This document shows, in pieces, positions 46,545 through 55,788 of a DNA stretch of 64,000 nt. Every line of letters starts with the position of its first letter. Positions within the stretch are counted from its first letter, which is position 1. Under the pieces are notes generated by a model. That model was given only the letters and a program-made list of their open reading frames with translations. It was not told the DNA's origin and searched no databases. Source of the DNA: an uncultured Candidatus Micrarchaeota archaeon (lineage in GTDB: Archaea > Micrarchaeota > Micrarchaeia > Anstonellales > J096); assembly GCA_938083015.1 (NCBI GenBank), contig CALKCX010000008.1:11196-75195 (forward strand), read 5' to 3'. The translations under genes and the position numbers were made by a program.

Positions 46545-47663
46545 ATGGAAGTTGTTGTACTTGCTGGTGGATTTTCAAAGAGAATGAGACCATTTGAATT
46601 AAAGCCCGTATTAACAATAGCTGGAAAAACAATAATAGATAGAGCTTTAGAAAGTTGGAAAGGCCATAATATATACGTGGTTTATAGAGATGAAAGAATT
46701 AAAGATTATGTTAAAACAGAAGGGGTAACTTTTGTAGAACAACTTGAAGATATGCCAGGTACTGCAGGAGCTATTTATTCTGTCAAACAATATATCAAAG
46801 GTAATAGTTTTTTCGTAATTTCATCTGATCATGTTCTTGATCCTAAAATATATGAAAAGATGCAGAAATCTAAGCCTAATACTGTGTGTATAAAAAGAGT
46901 AAATAATCCTGAAAAATACGGTGTTGTTGTACTTGAAAAAAATAAAATATCTGAAATTGTGGAAAAACCTTCTAATCCAAAGACGAATTTAGTAAACATA
47001 GGTATATATCATTTCAATAGAAGTATATTTAATGAAATCTCTAAAATAGATATTTCTCCAAGAGGTGAATATGAGATTACAGATACTCTTATAGGTAAAA
47101 ACGCCCTAATAATAGAAGATGAGGTATGGATGGATCTTGCATATCCTTGGGAATTACTTGAAGCTGCAAGGTATATCATAAGCGAATTAGAACCTGAGAG
47201 AAATGAAGGTGAATTAATAGGTCAAAATACCATATTGGGCAAGGTCATAATAGAGAAAAGTGCTCGTATAATTAATTCTACTATAGAAGGACCTGTATAC
47301 ATAGGTAAAAACGTTTCCATAGGTCCGTATTCATATATAAAAGGACCAGCTAGTTTAGAAGATAGTGTAGACATAGGTATAGGGACAACTGTAAAAAATT
47401 CTATATTAATGCAGGGAACTAAGGCAAAGCATTTAAATTATATTGGTGATTCTGTTATCGGTAAACATGTAAACTTTGGAGCTGGATCTGTAATAGCTAA
47501 TCTAAGATTTGATGAAGCTCCTATACAACCTATGAATACTAGAAAATTTGGTGCTGTTATTGGAGATAATGTAAAATTAGGAGTAAATAGTATGATAATG
47601 CCTGGTAGTATTATACAAAACAACACCATAATATATCCAGGACAATTATATAAGAATACTTAG
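46545..47663 (+). CDS. Bifunctional-type sugar-1-phosphate nucleotidylyltransferase with left-handed beta-helix (GlmU-like)
   Basis: VLAGGFSKRMRP N-terminal domain plus C-terminal hexapeptide repeats (IGKNVSIGPYSYI..., IGDSVIGKHVNFGAGS...). Confidence 0.75.
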   Translation: MEVVVLAGGFSKRMRPFELKPVLTIAGKTIIDRALESWKGHNIYVVYRDERIKDYVKTEGVTFVEQLEDMPGTAGAIYSVKQYIKGNSFFVISSDHVLDPKIYEKMQKSKPNTVCIKRVNNPEKYGVVVLEKNKISEIVEKPSNPKTNLVNIGIYHFNRSIFNEISKIDISPRGEYEITDTLIGKNALIIEDEVWMDLAYPWELLEAARYIISELEPERNEGELIGQNTILGKVIIEKSARIINSTIEGPVYIGKNVSIGPYSYIKGPASLEDSVDIGIGTTVKNSILMQGTKAKHLNYIGDSVIGKHVNFGAGSVIANLRFDEAPIQPMNTRKFGAVIGDNVKLGVNSMIMPGSIIQNNTIIYPGQLYKNT

Positions 47664-50044
47664 AATAGTTTAATCTTTTCCAAATATTCGTCTAATGTTA
47701 TTAACTGTACTTTATCATTTCTAACATATTGTATTATCATCATTCCAAGATTATTACTATAAAGCTGACTTTGAAGATCTTTTAGATCGAAATAATCTTT
47801 GGTTATAACTATTACTTCTCCATATTGATTAAGGGCATCGAGAATACTTTTAAATATACTATTGACTTTAGAGCTATCATATAGATATACTATACCTTCT
47901 CCATATTCGCTTATATATTTGACTGCACTTTCCTTTTGTAAATCTAATTCATACAGTATTCCATATTCTAGACCTGTATCTCTTAATATTCTATACATTA
48001 CCAATTGTTCTACATTTAATCCACTTTTTGATTCCCAATCTGCAAGTATATAATAATCTCGATACTTTTTCAATACCCCTCTAAGAACATAGGTATTTAA
48101 TGTTACTGATAAAGAATTATAATCGATTACTCCTGTTTCAAGATTAATATCAATACTGCTAAGACCTTCAGATATCTCTTTTTCTGTAAGAGGTACGTAT
48201 TTCCATTTATAATAACTTTCTACATATTCAAATAGTTTTCTCAATTTATCTTCATCCAATCTATACTCTTGAGTATCTATAGGTGGGAAAACATCTGGAA
48301 TATCTATACTGTATGTTATCGGTGGTCTTGGTTTAAGAAAATTAGATCCAAATACGATTAATACTGATATTACAATAGTAGCTAGACCGAGAGGATTTCC
48401 TAATATTAGTCTATCTATAGATGTTCTAGGTAATACTCTAAATGTTGCCTGATATTCAATATTCTTAATATTAAATGTTATAGTATAATTGCCTACTGGT
48501 AAAGGTTGATCCAAATTTATAGTTATGCCAGAACTATCGACAAATCTTTCTTCTCTAATTTTTTCTTCCCAAGGTAATTTAAATTTAACATTATCTACGT
48601 AAACAGGACTACCGTCAAAAGAATAGAAGTATATTTTAAGAAATCTACCTTGTCTATTATCAAAATACTGAGCTTTTGGATATACACTAGAAGCTACTAC
48701 TATACTTCTAGATAATAATACGCCTGTTGTTTCCCTTAATTCTATCATATAAGTACCTTCTTCAAGATTAAGAGATCTTCTGTATTCTGTAGATATCTTT
48801 GGTTCAATATTACCAACGGCAAACGAAGCTAATTTTGAATTTGAAACATTATACAAAATCAATTCTAGATTTCTACGTTCAGTTCTAAGACCGTAAGGTT
48901 CATATCTAACATCAAATGCTTGTTCAGTCTTTGGTAAAAAGAACCTATCTTTTGCCAATACTGCACCTCTACTAAATGGATATATATTGGAAACTAGTAA
49001 AAATGGTTTATAAGGATCAATTGATCGAATGTAAACATTAGGTCTAATCTTATCTAAGTTTATTACTAAAAATCTATGTCCTGGATTAATAGAAGTAGTT
49101 GATCTTGGTCCTGATATTCCATTTATCCATGCCCCATTTTCTAAATGTAGCTTCAATATTTCATATGCTTTTTCTACACTTTCAAGTATTTCATCATTTA
49201 AATCTACAGGATAAAACAAATATAATTTCGATCTTCCTTCATCATAGAAATAGCTTAGAAAATCAAATACTGCTGAATCTGGTATCATATAGTTTACTCT
49301 AAAAGATGAACTACCTAATATATAAGCTATTATTGGGTTTTTTTCACTTTTTTTATTCTGAATTAATGGAAAAACAAATAGATTATGAGAAATGGGCGAA
49401 GATAATGGATCTGGTTTGTAAAAAGCTGGTAATCTAGAAGATATGAATATGAAGTTAAGTTTCTTATTAGAATTTTGAATAACATCGTATACTTTTTTAT
49501 CAAGTACCTGTCCAAAATGTAATACAAAAGCACCATTAGGTAAGCTATCTATTTGTTCTGGTTCTATAATTCTAAATTTGTAATCCATATACTGCGTTAA
49601 TTCATACATTGCATTTTCATATTGTTCACCTCCAGATTTGAGAAGATAAAATTCTTTGATAATAGGATGATCCGAAGCTACAATTTGTACATCATAGCTA
49701 ATGTTTTTATCATTATCAATATTAAAAACAGGTAATAAAGCAGAGCTACCTAAGGTACCGAAATGTGCATAGAAAGCTTCTAATATCTCAGGAGGATCGT
49801 AAATTACAGGTTCAACGTTGATTATATTTTGCAAACTTAACAATTGTAAAAACCCATAAAACAATAAACCTAAGAAAAACAATACTGAAACTATACTAAT
49901 TATAAATCCTGTATTGTCTTTATCTTTGATTTTTGTAAAATATCTCTTTTCAAATTCTTCTTTACTAACTTTACCTGTATATTGTTTAATTACCTGTATT
50001 TTAAACAACTTGGCCACAAAATTTTTAACTATTTGAAACCTCAC
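47660..50044 (-). CDS. Large bitopic membrane protein (794 aa), unknown function
   Basis: GTG start overlaps the upstream TAG (TAGTG). There are TM helices near residues 46-68 and 555-575, with about 480 aa between them and a C-terminal tail of about 220 aa. Confidence 0.6.
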   Translation of the reverse strand: MRFQIVKNFVAKLFKIQVIKQYTGKVSKEEFEKRYFTKIKDKDNTGFIISIVSVLFFLGLLFYGFLQLLSLQNIINVEPVIYDPPEILEAFYAHFGTLGSSALLPVFNIDNDKNISYDVQIVASDHPIIKEFYLLKSGGEQYENAMYELTQYMDYKFRIIEPEQIDSLPNGAFVLHFGQVLDKKVYDVIQNSNKKLNFIFISSRLPAFYKPDPLSSPISHNLFVFPLIQNKKSEKNPIIAYILGSSSFRVNYMIPDSAVFDFLSYFYDEGRSKLYLFYPVDLNDEILESVEKAYEILKLHLENGAWINGISGPRSTTSINPGHRFLVINLDKIRPNVYIRSIDPYKPFLLVSNIYPFSRGAVLAKDRFFLPKTEQAFDVRYEPYGLRTERRNLELILYNVSNSKLASFAVGNIEPKISTEYRRSLNLEEGTYMIELRETTGVLLSRSIVVASSVYPKAQYFDNRQGRFLKIYFYSFDGSPVYVDNVKFKLPWEEKIREERFVDSSGITINLDQPLPVGNYTITFNIKNIEYQATFRVLPRTSIDRLILGNPLGLATIVISVLIVFGSNFLKPRPPITYSIDIPDVFPPIDTQEYRLDEDKLRKLFEYVESYYKWKYVPLTEKEISEGLSSIDINLETGVIDYNSLSVTLNTYVLRGVLKKYRDYYILADWESKSGLNVEQLVMYRILRDTGLEYGILYELDLQKESAVKYISEYGEGIVYLYDSSKVNSIFKSILDALNQYGEVIVITKDYFDLKDLQSQLYSNNLGMMIIQYVRNDKVQLITLDEYLEKIKLF

Positions 50045-50745
50045 TAATCAATCACCTTTAAGTATTTTTCCTTTACTAAAAAGTCAAGATTATCGTTTAC
50101 TCTACTTTCAGGAAGATTGTAATACTTAGCAAATTCTATAGTATTGATATAACCATTATTCTCTTTTATCCATTCTATTAGTTTTTCTCTAATCATATCA
50201 TCACTCATAGATTCGTATTTTCTTAATTTTAACATAGCTTTCTCTAATTCTTCACTAGTTTCTATCAATTTTCTTTCTATTTCAGCTTTTTCAATCTCTA
50301 ATTTTGCCAATCTCTTTTCAAGAGTATTTATCTGAGTCCTAAGTTGTTCTACTTTCATCAATTCTTCTTTAACATTTGAAGGTACTGATTGAAAGATATC
50401 ATTGATAGCATAGTCAATTATCTTAATCATATCCGATATATCAAGATCGTAATAGCTGGCAACTTGACTTATAATAGGTATTGCCTTTTTTATAACATCC
50501 CATCTTCTAAATGCTTCTTCATATCCGACTTCAGTATAACTTATTTCTATACTATCTTGTCCAAAATGTAATATGTAATAACTTTCAGGATTACCGTTTA
50601 CATCTTTACGTTCTAAATAAGCTACTTCTATACTATCTCCTCTTTCTAAATAGTAAAATCCGGTCATAGATTTTAATATAGATTTTATCCTATCCAGACT
50701 TTTCAGTTTGGCCTTTATCGTTATTTTCTTTGCCATCAACATCAC
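50044..50745 (-). CDS. Hypothetical coiled-coil protein with C-terminal winged-helix-like region (233 aa)
   Basis: Central heptad-like stretch EQLRTQINTLEKRLAKLEIEKAEIERKLIETSEELEKAMLKL, and C-terminal INTIEFAKYYNLPESRVNDNLDFLVKEKYLKV. The start may be ATG 50736. Confidence 0.55.
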   Translation of the reverse strand: MMLMAKKITIKAKLKSLDRIKSILKSMTGFYYLERGDSIEVAYLERKDVNGNPESYYILHFGQDSIEISYTEVGYEEAFRRWDVIKKAIPIISQVASYYDLDISDMIKIIDYAINDIFQSVPSNVKEELMKVEQLRTQINTLEKRLAKLEIEKAEIERKLIETSEELEKAMLKLRKYESMSDDMIREKLIEWIKENNGYINTIEFAKYYNLPESRVNDNLDFLVKEKYLKVID

Positions 50746-51124
50746 CTATAGTTTCAGGTTCAGAGTGAATATCAGGAATATATCTTGTATATACTACAGC
50801 GAATAGTACTAATAATGTTATCAATATTAAACTTATTAAAGAATTTATAGCTTGATTAAGATTAGCTCCGTTTAATATAGACAATATTCCTGTAAACCAG
50901 ATTAAAGCTACTAATACAGATGCCCACATTAGAGATTTCTCAAACTCTTTTCTTCTTTTTTTATAGTCTTCTAGGTTTTGTTTTGATACATACAATTCAT
51001 TACCTTGATATGTTTTCAACATCTTCTTTATATTGGCGAGAGTGTTTATAATAAAATCTTTTTTTATACGATAAGCTTGACTTCCAGGTGCTAGAGGTTC
51101 TTTCGATATAATATCTATTTTCAT
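50690..51124 (-). CDS. Small membrane protein: polar ~65-aa N-region plus two hydrophobic helices (144 aa)
   Basis: ATGA overlap with the ATPase gene stop. The helices are MWASVLVALIWFTGILSIL and INSLISLILITLLVLFAVVY. Confidence 0.55.
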   Translation of the reverse strand: MKIDIISKEPLAPGSQAYRIKKDFIINTLANIKKMLKTYQGNELYVSKQNLEDYKKRRKEFEKSLMWASVLVALIWFTGILSILNGANLNQAINSLISLILITLLVLFAVVYTRYIPDIHSEPETIGDVDGKENNDKGQTEKSG

Positions 51125-52686
51125 GGTTTCACCTCTATAATTCTCTCTCCACCTTTAATTTTTATTTGAGCTCTTTGAATGGCCTTTGCTATAGTTTGAT
51201 CTTCAACTCCTAATTCTTTTAAGAATTCTATAATATCTTTTCTCTCCACTCCTTCTAATAACATCAATCTTACGAATTCTATTATATCTAATCTATTGTT
51301 ATTCTTCTCAAACATATTGCTCATGTTTTCAATTACCTTCATATCCATTCCCATCATCTTAAGTTTAGATCTAAATTGTTCTCTAGTCATTGATACACTT
51401 CCCATAGTATCACCTTCAATAACATTTAACATGATAAAGTAATCTTTTACTATCTCTTCTCCTTCTATCTTTTTTATTAAAACAGTATTTGAAAAGTTTC
51501 CAGATATGTAATAAGAGAGATACATTGCAGCTTGTCCTACTCCAAAAGATTGTATTTTTTCTCTAATAAAATCACTAAATCTAAGACTTCCTTGAAGATA
51601 ATTTAAATAATTTTCAAATTTTACCTTTAATATCAACACAGTACCGCTGTTACTAAAAATGGCCTCTGCTATATCTGTTGGGTTTTGACTAGCTATTATC
51701 ATACTAAATCCATACTTTCTTCCTTCTCTGACAATCATGACAACATCACTGTTTTCCTCTTTACTAATCTTCCAAGCTTCATCTATAACCACAAATAATC
51801 TAACACCTTTAACTTTTCTAAAGTCTTCTGTTCTCATCTTTTCTTTTATGAATTGTAATACAGTTAAAGCACCTAAAGCACGCATTGTCTCATTAGGTAA
51901 AGTAGATAAATCTAAATCTACTAAACCTGAAGTTATAAGTTCATCTAATGATACTGTACTTTTATTAGCAAAGTAATCATCACCAGGTCTTGTAAATTGT
52001 TTTAACTTATGTACAAGAGTTTGTATTTCTCTTTTTATATATGGATTAGATTCTAATTCTATCTTTTCTTCTAAAAGCTTTACCACGTCTTTTAATGTAG
52101 GCGGTTCTAAAGGTCTACCAAGGGGATCAAATTGTTCATTCGAATCTAATTTAAATCCGGCATTAGAATAAGCTGTTTCTAAGGCCCATTCTAATAATCT
52201 CTTTTGTTCTTCTTCTGCCGATATCCCTATTAGAAGATTTAAAGTCTCAACGATTTGCTGTATTCTAGCATATGGTTTCATTCCACCTAAATCCATGATA
52301 TTAAGATAATTCCCCCCACCTAAAGATAATACCTTACCATTAGTCTGCATTACCCAATCTTTATATTCTCCTGCCCAATCTATTATTATTGCATTTGCAT
52401 TCCAAACATAACTGGCCCGAAGTAGGAAAGTTTTAATTGTAAAAGATTTACCAGATCCACTAATACCTACTATGACTATATGAGGATTAGTTAAATACTT
52501 AGGATTCCAATATACAGGAGTATTTAAAAATTCCGTTACACCTAAATATATTCCATCTGTTGGATTACTAAACAATAATTCAGGAGGAGGTTGAGGTAGG
52601 TATTGTAAAGGCACTCTAGCTGCTATTTCAGAATTATTTATTTCATTGAACTTTAAATTTCCCCCCAATACGCCCATGTTATACAC
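51121..52686 (-). CDS. VirB4/TraC-like ATPase (FtsK-HerA superfamily)
   Basis: Walker A IVGISGSGKSFT, Walker B RLFVVIDEAWK, and IIASQNPTD. Confidence 0.7.
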   Translation of the reverse strand: MYNMGVLGGNLKFNEINNSEIAARVPLQYLPQPPPELLFSNPTDGIYLGVTEFLNTPVYWNPKYLTNPHIVIVGISGSGKSFTIKTFLLRASYVWNANAIIIDWAGEYKDWVMQTNGKVLSLGGGNYLNIMDLGGMKPYARIQQIVETLNLLIGISAEEEQKRLLEWALETAYSNAGFKLDSNEQFDPLGRPLEPPTLKDVVKLLEEKIELESNPYIKREIQTLVHKLKQFTRPGDDYFANKSTVSLDELITSGLVDLDLSTLPNETMRALGALTVLQFIKEKMRTEDFRKVKGVRLFVVIDEAWKISKEENSDVVMIVREGRKYGFSMIIASQNPTDIAEAIFSNSGTVLILKVKFENYLNYLQGSLRFSDFIREKIQSFGVGQAAMYLSYYISGNFSNTVLIKKIEGEEIVKDYFIMLNVIEGDTMGSVSMTREQFRSKLKMMGMDMKVIENMSNMFEKNNNRLDIIEFVRLMLLEGVERKDIIEFLKELGVEDQTIAKAIQRAQIKIKGGERIIEVKP

Positions 52687-53509
52687 CTTGTTGTTTTGGA
52701 CTAACTTTGCCTATCTCTTTATACATTTCATCAGTATTTGTAGGTATAATATATTCCATTTCAAGTACTTTTAACAAATCTGGGCCTTTTATTTCATAAG
52801 CTTCTGCTCTTAAAGCTGTTTGCATCTGAGTTTTCAATTCATCCATATCTGCTTTACTTTTTTCTATAACTTCGTCTTTACTATTACCTTTAACAGTAAC
52901 CTGACAATATATTATTATGTCCATAGGTCTTAATCCCTGTTCTAATCTTTGTATCTGTTGATTCCAATATGCCTTTTCTCTCTCTAGTCTTTCTATAGTT
53001 AACAAATCCGGAGATGGAGATTCTCTAGCTTTTTGCAGTCTTAAAGATATTTCACTTCTCTTAGTTTCTAATTCTTTCTTCTTTGCACTGATATCTATAG
53101 AATACATCAAGTATGATATTTTGAAAGGTTTTTTATAATTTATCACAGCTTGTTCAAATTGTTTCTTCAAAGTCATTACTCCGTCAGGGTTATCAGAAAA
53201 AGCTTCGTATAATTTTAGACCAAAAAATCTACTTGCATAGTATTCGTCACCTACTTGTTTGATTACAACATCCATACTTGGAGGGATTTCATGTTTAGTG
53301 TGATTCATTACAATTACTACATTTTTAAGTTTAGCTAAGAATGGAAATGTTTGATCACCGTAAAGAAGCATCATAGCTACTATTATTGTAGACAATGCCG
53401 TTATTACTAATATTATTGGATTATTAAATGTAAATGCTAATAACAATGATACTACTGCTATTCCTATAACAATGTATTTTTGAGTATTAGTATCACCGGG
53501 TAACATCAA
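52679..53509 (-). CDS. Membrane protein with two N-terminal TM helices plus a soluble/coiled-coil domain (276 aa)
   Basis: TM helices YIVIGIAVVSLLLAFTF and PIILVITALSTIIVAMMLLYG. It overlaps the ATPase start by 8 nt. Confidence 0.55.
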   Translation of the reverse strand: MMLPGDTNTQKYIVIGIAVVSLLLAFTFNNPIILVITALSTIIVAMMLLYGDQTFPFLAKLKNVVIVMNHTKHEIPPSMDVVIKQVGDEYYASRFFGLKLYEAFSDNPDGVMTLKKQFEQAVINYKKPFKISYLMYSIDISAKKKELETKRSEISLRLQKARESPSPDLLTIERLEREKAYWNQQIQRLEQGLRPMDIIIYCQVTVKGNSKDEVIEKSKADMDELKTQMQTALRAEAYEIKGPDLLKVLEMEYIIPTNTDEMYKEIGKVSPKQQGV

Positions 53510-53552: not shown

Positions 53553-55265
53553 ATGTTGTTCATTGATCTATGTAAGATATTGGAAAGAATAGCAGAAGAT
53601 AGGGGAAGACTTAGAATAATAAGCATATTATCAGAATTATTTTCTAATATATCTCCTAATGAAGCAAAAATAGTAAGTTATCTTATAATTGGTCAAATAG
53701 CTCCACCTTATGTAAAATTAGAATTAGGGGTATCGTCGAATACTATTTTAAATGCCTTATCTCAAGTCTCTGGTATAGATAAGACTAAATTAGAAAATAT
53801 GTTAAGACGAGTTGGAGATATCGGAGATCTTACTTATAAAGTTCTTGAAAATAGAAAATTAAGATTATTAGATGAAAACAGATATCTAAGTTTAGATTAC
53901 GTATTTAATATTTTACATAAAATAGCTAGAGATAGTTCAATAAAAGTTAAAACAGATTTATTAGTATCTTTATTTGGTAGAATTTCTAGTTTAGAAGGTA
54001 AGTATTTAGCTAGATTAATTGTAAATAAAACTAGAGTTGCCATAGGTGTTGCAACAGTATTAGATAGTTTAGCTACTGCTAAAAATCTTGATAAAGAACG
54101 TGTAAGAAAAATATACTATATGACATCTGATATAGGTGAAACGACTTATAGAATACTGTCTAATAACCTTGATATTGATATCAATCTTTATCGTCCTATA
54201 CAGCCTGCATTAGCTGAAAGAGTAAAAGATAGTCAAGAGATGTTAGAAAAGTCTCCAGAATTGTTTGTAGAATATAAATACGATGGATTTAGAATACAAT
54301 TGCACAAAGGAGATGATGTAAAAATATTCTCAAGGAAATTAGAAGATATAACTGATCTTCTACCAGAAATTGTCGAAGATTCAAAAAAATATCCAGGTAA
54401 ATTTATAGTTGAAGGTGAGGCCGTTTCTATATTAGATGGAAAACCATTGCCATTTCAAGAGATTATAAAGAGAAAGAGAAAGTATAACATTGATGAGTAC
54501 ATTGATATAATACCAATTCATGTTTATTTATTCGATATATTATATTTAGATGGGCAAAAATTGATAGATCTTCCTTTTCGAGATAGAAGGGCAATATTAG
54601 AAAATTTTGTAAATAATAATTTTAGTAGACTTAAACTTAGTTACGGTAAATACACATCGAGTAAACAAGAGATAGACGATATATTTCAAAGATCAATAGC
54701 TGAACATATGGAAGGAATTATTGGTAAAAAACCAGATGCCCCGTATACTCCTGGTCAGAGAAATCATAATTGGATGAAGTTAAAACATGGTAAAGATACT
54801 ATAGACGCTGTAATAGTAGGCTATTTTTATGGTCAAGGTAGATTAAAAGGTTATCCTGGCTCTTTATTGATATGTGTATATGATGAAGATAATGATGAAT
54901 ATCAAACTATAGCAAAGGTATCTTCTGGATTATCAGAAGAAGAATTAATAGAGCTAAGTAATAAATTAATAGCTACTAATAGACCAGGTATAGGAATTGT
55001 ATCAAACATTGAACCGGATGTATGGGTGGAACCAGATGTTGTAGTAGAAGTAACCTATGATGAAATTACCTTATCGCCAGTACATACATGTGCAAAAGAC
55101 GTATTTAAAAATAGAGGTCTTGCATTAAGATTTCCAAGAATAATTAGAATAAGAGACGATAAGTCTATATATGAGGTAACAAGAGTTTCAGAAATGATAT
55201 CTTTGTATAAATCACAAGGACCAAGGCGACAAGTAGAATTGGAAGAAAAGGAAGAGTCTTTTTAA
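53553..55265 (+). CDS. lig: ATP-dependent DNA ligase
   Basis: Adenylation motif EYKYDGFRIQLH, EGEAV, NWMKLK and LRFPRIIRIRDDK. Confidence 0.93.
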   Translation: MLFIDLCKILERIAEDRGRLRIISILSELFSNISPNEAKIVSYLIIGQIAPPYVKLELGVSSNTILNALSQVSGIDKTKLENMLRRVGDIGDLTYKVLENRKLRLLDENRYLSLDYVFNILHKIARDSSIKVKTDLLVSLFGRISSLEGKYLARLIVNKTRVAIGVATVLDSLATAKNLDKERVRKIYYMTSDIGETTYRILSNNLDIDINLYRPIQPALAERVKDSQEMLEKSPELFVEYKYDGFRIQLHKGDDVKIFSRKLEDITDLLPEIVEDSKKYPGKFIVEGEAVSILDGKPLPFQEIIKRKRKYNIDEYIDIIPIHVYLFDILYLDGQKLIDLPFRDRRAILENFVNNNFSRLKLSYGKYTSSKQEIDDIFQRSIAEHMEGIIGKKPDAPYTPGQRNHNWMKLKHGKDTIDAVIVGYFYGQGRLKGYPGSLLICVYDEDNDEYQTIAKVSSGLSEEELIELSNKLIATNRPGIGIVSNIEPDVWVEPDVVVEVTYDEITLSPVHTCAKDVFKNRGLALRFPRIIRIRDDKSIYEVTRVSEMISLYKSQGPRRQVELEEKEESF

Positions 55266-55788
55266 TAATTACTTGTTTACCAAGATTATTATAAACGTAT
55301 TCTTTATCTATAAGCTTTCCGTCTATGGTAACCTCTCCTATTAGATTATAATCTACTTTTTTAATTTCATATAATTTATCTTTGAATAGAATTATGCCTA
55401 GGTAAGACAATAGAATTGAAAAAAATGGATTTAAAAACATTACAATCAACACAAAAATTGTATAGGAAATACTATAACTAACTGAAATGGCCAATATAGA
55501 AGATATTATAAGAACATCGATAAAATATATGTTAAGATGAATTGCCAATACAGGTAATATTAAGACCTCTGCATCTCCGAATACATTTAATTTATATAGT
55601 AAATAAGCTAATAGAGTATAAATTACAATATATACTAATGAATCTGTTATAAAGGCCTGGTATATACCTATGCCATACATAAACCATACTAAAAAATCAG
55701 GTACATTCTTATTGTTTTTTATATCGTAATATGACAATATGGCCAATATAGATAAGTATATTATACTAAATATATCAAAATTGGACAT
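55165..55788 (-). CDS. Probable A24-family prepilin/preflagellin peptidase
   Basis: Polytopic. The candidate catalytic Asp residues lie in YYDIKNNKNVPD and NVFGDAEVL, about 50 aa apart. Confidence 0.5.
   Translation of the reverse strand: MSNFDIFSIIYLSILAILSYYDIKNNKNVPDFLVWFMYGIGIYQAFITDSLVYIVIYTLLAYLLYKLNVFGDAEVLILPVLAIHLNIYFIDVLIISSILAISVSYSISYTIFVLIVMFLNPFFSILLSYLGIILFKDKLYEIKKVDYNLIGEVTIDGKLIDKEYVYNNLGKQVIIKKTLPFLPILLVALVLVIYTKISFLKLLLPHI

Follow-up and report, generated by a model that had tools for sequence, protein, structure and literature searches.

The closest system-level parallel to the locus described here is the chromosomal type IV secretion system (T4SS) of Patescibacteria, and its closest archaeal relatives are the Ced and Ted DNA import systems of Crenarchaeota. 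Patescibacteria carry a near-universal VirB4 machine that is chromosomal and not part of a mobile element, together with tandem arrays of divergent VirB2-like pilins (PMC12102498). Ced and Ted are archaeal, domesticated T4SS derivatives that combine a VirB4-like ATPase with small hairpin membrane proteins and include a VirB6-like protein with seven transmembrane (TM) helices; among their small proteins, TedC has a cleavable signal peptidase I signal peptide, as do bacterial VirB2-type pilins, and CedA1 is unprocessed and carries no long extension (Beltran et al., PMC9905601). VirB4/TraG-like ATPase domains are also found in giant proteins of Nanohaloarchaeota (PMC10266531). Here we analyze a gene for a 144-amino-acid (aa) protein that lies directly downstream of a VirB4-type ATPase gene in an uncultured Candidatus Micrarchaeota archaeon, within a 64,000-nucleotide (nt) stretch of contig CALKCX010000008.1 (positions 11,196 to 75,195 of the forward strand; assembly GCA_938083015.1) that we refer to as the window. 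Micrarchaeota are tiny, host-dependent archaea, and we know of no account of how they physically interact with their hosts. In the literature on secretion-type ATPases of Micrarchaeota and DPANN archaea, we found no published description of this operon or of the 144-aa family.

Our preferred reading, to which we assign a probability of roughly 0.6, is that the 144-aa protein is an inner-membrane accessory subunit of a T4SS-derived chromosomal machine, where it would act as an anchor or organizer of the ATPase and not as a filament. Its membership in the neighboring VirB4-type ATPase system, as proposed in an earlier note on this DNA that also named co-occurrence as a check, is strongly supported by both gene order and phyletic distribution. 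A homologue lies directly after the ATPase gene at all 44 loci checked, although at a few of these the two-TM gene (i.e., the 144-aa homologue) was located by family-profile search and not by BLAST. The order of ATPase gene, two-TM gene and 233-aa gene was found at 30/30 loci from other genera of the order, with the ATPase at 50-56% identity, and the whole five-gene set was kept at similar lengths at 14/14 class-level loci. Across 201 genomes sampled throughout the phylum, the ATPase (E ≤ 1e-30) and the two-TM family were each detected in 177, and their presence or absence is concordant in at least 196; the lists of genomes lacking one or the other are almost identical (families f13, f14, f17 and f19-f22), and weak matches are involved in both genomes known to be discordant (G146 and G193). 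What emerges is a new family that is inseparable from a VirB4-type motor over most of the phylum. This pattern also bears on whether the protein could be a regulator or assembly factor (e.g., a membrane-tethered ATPase inhibitor or chaperone) and not a structural part: its small size, its fold without a known match and the tight coupling of its gene to the ATPase gene would all suit such a role, but one-to-one conservation with four other operon genes over a class-level span fits a stoichiometric subunit better, and we regard a regulator as very unlikely.

The 144-aa open reading frame (ORF) was verified in the window sequence at 50690-51124 on the minus strand, the strand that carries every gene of the operon. 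Its ATG start codon shares the sequence ATGA with the stop codon of the ATPase gene and has a Shine-Dalgarno-like GAGGTGA just 5' of it, and it shares its last 56 nt (50690-50745) with the beginning of the 233-aa gene, which is read in a different frame; in relatives, the same gene pair likewise overlaps, by ~29-38 nt. Comparison with an 80%-identical orthologue (locus L004) gave a ratio of nonsynonymous to synonymous substitution rates (dN/dS) of 0.124/1.67 (about 0.07), showing that the gene is under strong purifying selection. The proportion of synonymous differences (pS) was 0.20 in the tail region (residues 114-144, which hold the overlap) vs. 0.74-0.86 across the remaining gene, i.e., synonymous change is suppressed only where the 233-aa gene overlaps. 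A word-based search for homologues returned only 3 proteins, and a profile search of 1.84 billion representative proteins returned 173 clusters with full-length matches at E ≤ 1e-3, every named member of which is from Micrarchaeota. Because of the low dN/dS, these 173 clusters and the presence of a homologue in 177/201 genomes, the ORF is a real gene and not a chance ORF. The source genome measures 518 kb at 29% G+C, and the closest public relatives of the window are hot-spring metagenome-assembled genomes labelled Micrarchaeota or Anstonellales.

Hydropathy analysis identified exactly two TM-grade segments in the 144-aa protein, at residues 65-83 (LMWASVLVALIWFTGILSI) and 93-111 (INSLISLILITLLVLFAVV). 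The layout given in the earlier note, namely a polar N-region, two hydrophobic helices, an NGANLNQA loop and an acidic tail, was recovered in every part by hydropathy and composition, with 15 K+R and 8 D+E in the N-region (residues 1-65) and 4 K+R and 8 D+E in the tail (residues 113-144). An AlphaFold2 (AF2) model was built from an alignment of 98 family members, which also underlies the statistics on conservation, ligands and charges given below, and it reached a mean predicted local distance difference test score (pLDDT) of 92.1 and a predicted TM-score (pTM) of 0.77. In this model, residues 1-64 (50933-51124) comprise a small alpha/beta domain (strands 2-4, 16-20 and 43-47; helix 24-35), outlined also by alignment columns and ligand patterns, followed by a basic helix at residues 48-64. 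The latter continues without a break, as a single helix 48-84, into TM helix 1 (residues 65-84; 50873-50932). The loop (residues 85-92; 50849-50872) is uncharged and predicted to be extracellular, with a family median length of 8 residues and net charge of 0, and TM helix 2 (residues 93-112; 50789-50848) falls within a modelled helix at 89-114. The segment that follows (residues 113-125; 50750-50788) carries the motif Y115-x-P117-x-I-E, with Y in 82/98 and P in 96/98 members, and is modelled to end in a beta-strand at 119-125. The remaining acidic tail (residues 126-144; 50693-50749), delimited by composition and by the drop in pS, is of low confidence and contains the stretch shared with the 233-aa gene; in most relatives, the tail is instead rich in lysine.

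The family median net charge is +6 in the N-region and +5 in the C-region, on either side of the neutral loop. Positively charged flanks of TM helices face the cytoplasm (the positive-inside rule), and because of this charge distribution both termini of the 144-aa protein are predicted to be cytoplasmic, with the 8-residue loop alone outside. Strand 119-125 would pair with the N-domain sheet, on the same side of the membrane, because the remaining strands all lie in the N-domain. The protein is thereby modelled as a non-cleaved integral membrane protein, an in/in hairpin with a compact cytoplasmic cap. Foldseek searches with the model found nothing significant (best E = 2 in PDB and 0.6 in BFVD), and a profile search of PDB with the family found nothing meaningful; the 144-aa protein founds a new family that has neither a Pfam entry nor a structural match. 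With clear partners and a compact fold that is modelled with confidence, it should be tractable to study in cultured Micrarchaeota.

Conjugative pilins (F TraA, VirB2/TrbC, CedA1 and TedC; PMC9905601) resemble the 144-aa protein in having two hydrophobic helices, a short loop and an association with a VirB4-type ATPase. The earlier note had read it as a TraA/VirB2/Ced/Ted-like propilin with a long leader, a reading in which the ~65-aa leader would be cleaved and the hairpin would polymerize together with lipid to give a conjugative pilus of the TraA/VirB2/CedA1/TedC type, with the ATPase as its motor. The leader of the F TraA propilin is a signal peptide cut by signal peptidase I, and F-pilin stored in the membrane has its termini outside the cytoplasm. 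A pilin-sized two-helix hydrophobic hairpin adjoining a VirB4-like ATPase, together with the strict co-occurrence of the two families, is what one would expect of such a propilin, but the 144-aa protein differs from pilins in its N-region, its topology and its profile and fold matches. The N-region is folded, carries a putative metal site in most relatives and is the best conserved part of the family, at 2.43 bits per column compared with 1.8-1.9 in the TM helices and 1.2 in the tail. None of the 98 members has a hydrophobic signal-like stretch in residues 1-60 (12-residue hydropathy maximum 1.6, median 0.83), and a search of the N-region for leader cleavage, suggested in the earlier note, found neither a signal-like hydrophobic core nor a cleavage-type motif. 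The predicted cytoplasmic location of both termini is the opposite of that of membrane-stored F-pilin. No pilin family (PF05513, PF04956, PF18895) matched the window protein at E ≤ 1, none was among the 25 families most often matched by the 98 members, and the PDB profile search with the family retrieved no solved pilin chain at E ≤ 10. When the AF2 model was set against pilin structures, as the earlier note had also suggested, it was found to have an alpha/beta N-domain and a C-terminal strand in addition to the hairpin, with no pilin among the Foldseek matches listed. The earlier note had itself named a folded, uncleaved cytoplasmic N-region as speaking against a propilin, and the model, conservation and charges all point to such a domain.

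Other genes of this genome make better pilin candidates. Scanned in six frames with Pfam TrbC, the genome showed a weak match on contig C2, at a locus of two tandem VirB2-like genes encoding 116 and 110 aa (G000 C2:15946-16296 and C2:15638-15970, both minus strand), and a third such gene, encoding 110 aa, lies on contig C14 (G000 C14:12400-12732, plus strand). In all three proteins, a Sec-type signal peptide precedes two hydrophobic helices that flank a basic loop (GQxLPxExKAR); helix 1 starts with a Cys, and a second Cys lies at the C-terminus. Among 18 aligned members of this family, PF18895 (T4SS_pilin) matched 9 (best 4.7e-6) and PF04956 (TrbC/VirB2) matched 7 (best 9.7e-6). The family occurs in all 61 genomes of the order, in 2-9 copies that are often in tandem, and in 177/201 genomes of the phylum, with its absences falling in the same families as those of the ATPase. 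In one relative (genome G093, locus L048), three tandem VirB2-like genes (L048:4248-5449) immediately precede, in the same orientation, an operon (L048:5554-9186) with genes for a 273-aa protein, the ATPase, a Cys-bearing 147-aa protein and a 247-aa protein, i.e., in the classical virB2-virB3-virB4 order, and listed coordinates suggest the same upstream arrangement in four further genomes (G168, G051, G200 and G039). In such relatives, the VirB2-like genes stand ahead of the operon, in the place of virB2, and comparison of the 144-aa family with the VirB2-like family of its own genome by hhalign gave a probability of 7.8%, i.e., no profile similarity. A filament role would fit these separate VirB2-like genes and not the 144-aa protein, for which we consider a propilin function extremely improbable. 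Of the earlier proposal of a filament or conduit subunit, the filament half is thereby abandoned, and the conduit half is weighed below as a rival; a wrong candidate for the filament subunit is removed and the VirB2-like genes are indicated in its place.

Several other assignments of the 144-aa protein were considered and rejected. An archaeal type IV pilin with a class III signal peptide is at odds with a first hydrophobic helix that begins only at residue 65, after a folded domain, and is followed by a second TM helix and not by a globular domain. Cleavage by a prepilin peptidase between EKS and LMW was dismissed on the basis of the family -1 position (N/S/T/D), the 64-residue folded leader and, again, the second TM helix. 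Scans of Pfam, NCBIfam and PHROGs with the 144-aa protein gave only sub-threshold matches driven by TM composition (DUF2207_C, SLATT and DUF2069), and membership among SLATT-type pore effectors or in DUF2207 was discarded with all scores far below cut-off.

In two relatives, at L068:9095-14403 (G091) and L071:4642-9875 (G136), pilin-like gene arrays adjoin secreted proteins of ~1400 aa and lie near proteins of ~500 aa with 8-10 TM helices, whose N-termini resemble ArnT/PMT-type glycosyltransferases by eye only.

The conserved N-region of the 144-aa family contains a recurrent set of potential metal ligands. At positions equivalent to residues 4, 7, 47 and 50 of the window protein, the alignment has C (89 members), C (71), C (72) and C/D/H (35/30/17), and the complete CxxC...CxxC/D/H set is present in 64/98 members. 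The predicted ligand positions, on the first strand and its turn and at the junction of strand 43-47 with the following helix, would form a treble-clef-like arrangement. Weak matches to the DUF2116 'treble clef' family were found in 7/98 members, all below curated cut-offs, and the likeness to small archaeal treble-clef/zinc-ribbon proteins of this kind lies in a CxxC knuckle with a second CxxC/D/H at a strand-to-helix junction; unlike in those proteins, the module of the 144-aa family is fused to a TM hairpin, and in the window protein its ligands are lost. D4, S7, S47 and N50 take the four ligand positions in the window protein and in close relatives of it, so the window protein could not bind zinc in that way; its hot-spring clade has lost the putative metal site common to most family members. 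We infer that its N-domain may be a degenerate treble-clef or zinc-ribbon-like domain, derived from a putative four-ligand zinc module. That one thermophilic clade has lost the metal site together with the basic tail amounts to a natural experiment on which features the conserved function needs.

This experiment speaks directly to the possibility that the protein is a substrate receptor or coupling adaptor, whose zinc module and basic tail would bind a nucleic acid or protein substrate and pass it to the ATPase in the role of VirD4. Such a role would suit the CxxC...CxxC module and lysine-rich C-tail of most members, the annotation of a homologue by one source as a nucleic-acid-binding Zn ribbon, an operon without a VirD4-like gene and the winged-helix-like domain that ends the 233-aa product of the next gene. 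In the window clade, however, all four ligands are gone and the tail is acidic, and still the gene keeps its place in the operon and evolves under strong purifying selection; the conserved function is therefore independent of those features, and we judge a receptor or adaptor to be improbable.

The protein encoded directly upstream (521 aa; 51121-52686) would supply the motor of the system. Walker A (GISGSGKS) and Walker B (LFVVIDEAW) motifs are intact and readable, hydropathy shows no TM segment, and library scans returned CD1110-type VirB4 (3e-26), Mbov_0397 VirB4 (5e-25), CedB (1e-24) and DUF87/HerA (8e-16), with all matches below family cut-offs and covering only the C-terminal ATPase part of the models. 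Its best solved relative is the VirB4 C-terminal domain (4AG5, 5e-11). From these profile matches, the neighbor is classed as a VirB4/CedB/HerA-type ATPase with a motor resembling the VirB4 C-terminal domain. The next gene upstream (52679-53509) encodes a 276-aa protein with an N-terminal two-TM hairpin, in a VirB3-like position, followed by a domain resembling the VirB4 N-domain. Library scans and the PDB profile search gave no sequence-level family or PDB match for this protein, and the ten best Foldseek PDB matches of its AF2 model (pLDDT 74.9) are all TrwK/VirB4 of the R388 T4SS (best E = 2e-3, probability 1.00; aligned columns 185-226). These matches suggest that VirB4 is split, with a VirB3-like hairpin and the VirB4 N-domain in the 276-aa protein and the C-domain in the 521-aa protein, with confidence that is only moderate because the Foldseek E-values are borderline and the TM-scores low.

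Downstream of the 144-aa gene lie the two remaining genes of the operon. The first (50044-50745) encodes a 233-aa, predicted cytoplasmic protein in which an N-terminal domain is followed by a coiled coil and, at the C-terminus, a winged-helix-like domain, the last ~45 residues of the family matching weakly the winged helix of archaeal CdvB (2xvc, E = 0.0017) and Pfam EAP30/Vps36 (7.5e-4). The second (47660-50044) encodes a 794-aa protein for which hydropathy and profile point to two TM helices around an outside domain of ~480 aa and, after them, a conserved C-domain in the cytoplasm; library scans and the PDB profile search found no known family for it. Searched against PDB, the 276-aa, 233-aa and 794-aa family profiles gave nothing beyond coiled-coil noise and the weak CdvB winged helix.

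Additional copies of operon genes were also observed. A second, diverged ATPase copy (~47-48% identity) is present in many order-level genomes (e.g., G189:C120:2821-4290, G156:C35:31491-32966 and G005:C16:1658-3121), and some order-level genomes have 2-3 copies of the two-TM family, which suggests paralogous copies of the machine.

Library scans found no polytopic VirB6-like gene in the operon, and Pfam TrbL/VirB6 had no match anywhere in the genome. These absences favor the idea that the 144-aa protein is itself part of the channel, with six or more hairpins ringing the ATPase pore and forming or lining a membrane conduit in place of VirB6 within the operon, as does its position as a membrane-embedded protein translationally coupled to the motor gene. 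The external loop of just 8 uncharged residues and the lower conservation of the TM helices argue otherwise, and Foldseek gave no structural precedent for such a conduit. A channel could moreover be supplied by two tight arrays of six polytopic membrane paralogues each (G000 C1:22876-30279, plus strand, and C10:47085-56662, minus strand), whose members share a motif like 'ILRxFxPTKxxGGxLIxL...P' and the second of which is followed by a giant secreted protein of 1363 aa. A Pfam scan of four of these paralogues found no family, and they are possible channel (VirB6-like) components. On balance, a conduit made of 144-aa hairpins seems unlikely.

Under our preferred reading of an accessory subunit at the inner membrane, the 144-aa protein would be an obligate, stoichiometric part of the T4SS-derived machine, whose motor would be a split VirB4 made of the 276-aa protein (VirB3-like hairpin plus VirB4 N-domain) and the 521-aa C-domain ATPase. 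The ATPase, having no TM segment, would need a membrane anchor, and the 144-aa protein would most likely tether or organize the soluble ATPase ring at the membrane. The basic helix would run from the alpha/beta domain (residues 1-47) straight into TM helix 1, and the strand after TM helix 2 would rejoin the N-domain sheet, so that the soluble part would cap the membrane compactly on its inner face. The TM hairpin would join an inner-membrane platform with the 276-aa and 794-aa proteins, and the separate VirB2-like proteins with Sec signals would form the filament.

Several points weigh against this proposal. That the 144-aa protein would touch the ATPase is a supposition from genomic context, and since the fold has no significant match in PDB or BFVD, the function assigned to the protein is likewise drawn entirely from that context. 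With the membrane hairpin of the 276-aa protein already present, the machine would not strictly need a second anchor. The proposed partners of strand 119-125 were read from the list of secondary-structure elements and not from coordinates, and the assignment of the 276-aa protein to the VirB4 N-domain draws on a borderline E-value, low TM-scores and a medium-confidence model.

Among described proteins, VirB3 (TrwM, PrgI) would be the closest functional analogue of the 144-aa protein, being likewise a small TM-hairpin protein next to virB4 that plausibly holds the ATPase at the membrane. The 144-aa protein is not a member of that family: it has no match to VirB3 (PF05101) at E ≤ 1, its gene adjoins the ATPase gene on the downstream and not the upstream side, it has a folded N-domain of 64 residues, and the VirB3-like position is already filled by the hairpin of the 276-aa protein. 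The comparison with Ced and Ted is similarly partial. The 521-aa ATPase scored 87 bits with NCBIfam CedB against a 700-bit cut-off and 72 bits with CedD against 600, the operon has no CedA/TedA-like gene with 6-7 TM helices, and the 144-aa protein is unrelated to CedA1, CedA2 and TedC by every test run. With Patescibacteria, the parallel extends to a genome-reduced, host-dependent lineage, whereas the Micrarchaeota machine is archaeal, its VirB4 is apparently split, and its 144-aa, 233-aa and 794-aa partners have no recognized bacterial counterparts.

Taken more broadly, these comparisons raise the prospect that most Micrarchaeota have an as yet undescribed organelle, derived from a T4SS, of which the 144-aa family is a core subunit specific to this lineage. 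Such an organelle would comprise a split VirB3/VirB4 motor, the zinc-module hairpin, winged-helix and ecto-domain proteins, VirB2-like arrays and possibly the six-paralogue polytopic arrays, and the 144-aa subunit would couple the motor to a membrane channel for exchange of DNA or macromolecules with hosts. We put this forward only tentatively, as a conceivable though doubtful extension of the narrower proposal.

One further polytopic membrane protein is encoded upstream of the operon in the window, a 207-aa protein at 55165-55788 on the minus strand with a very weak match to Peptidase_A24 (prepilin peptidase; E = 0.32). The 3' end of its gene overlaps a convergent DNA ligase gene by ~100 nt.

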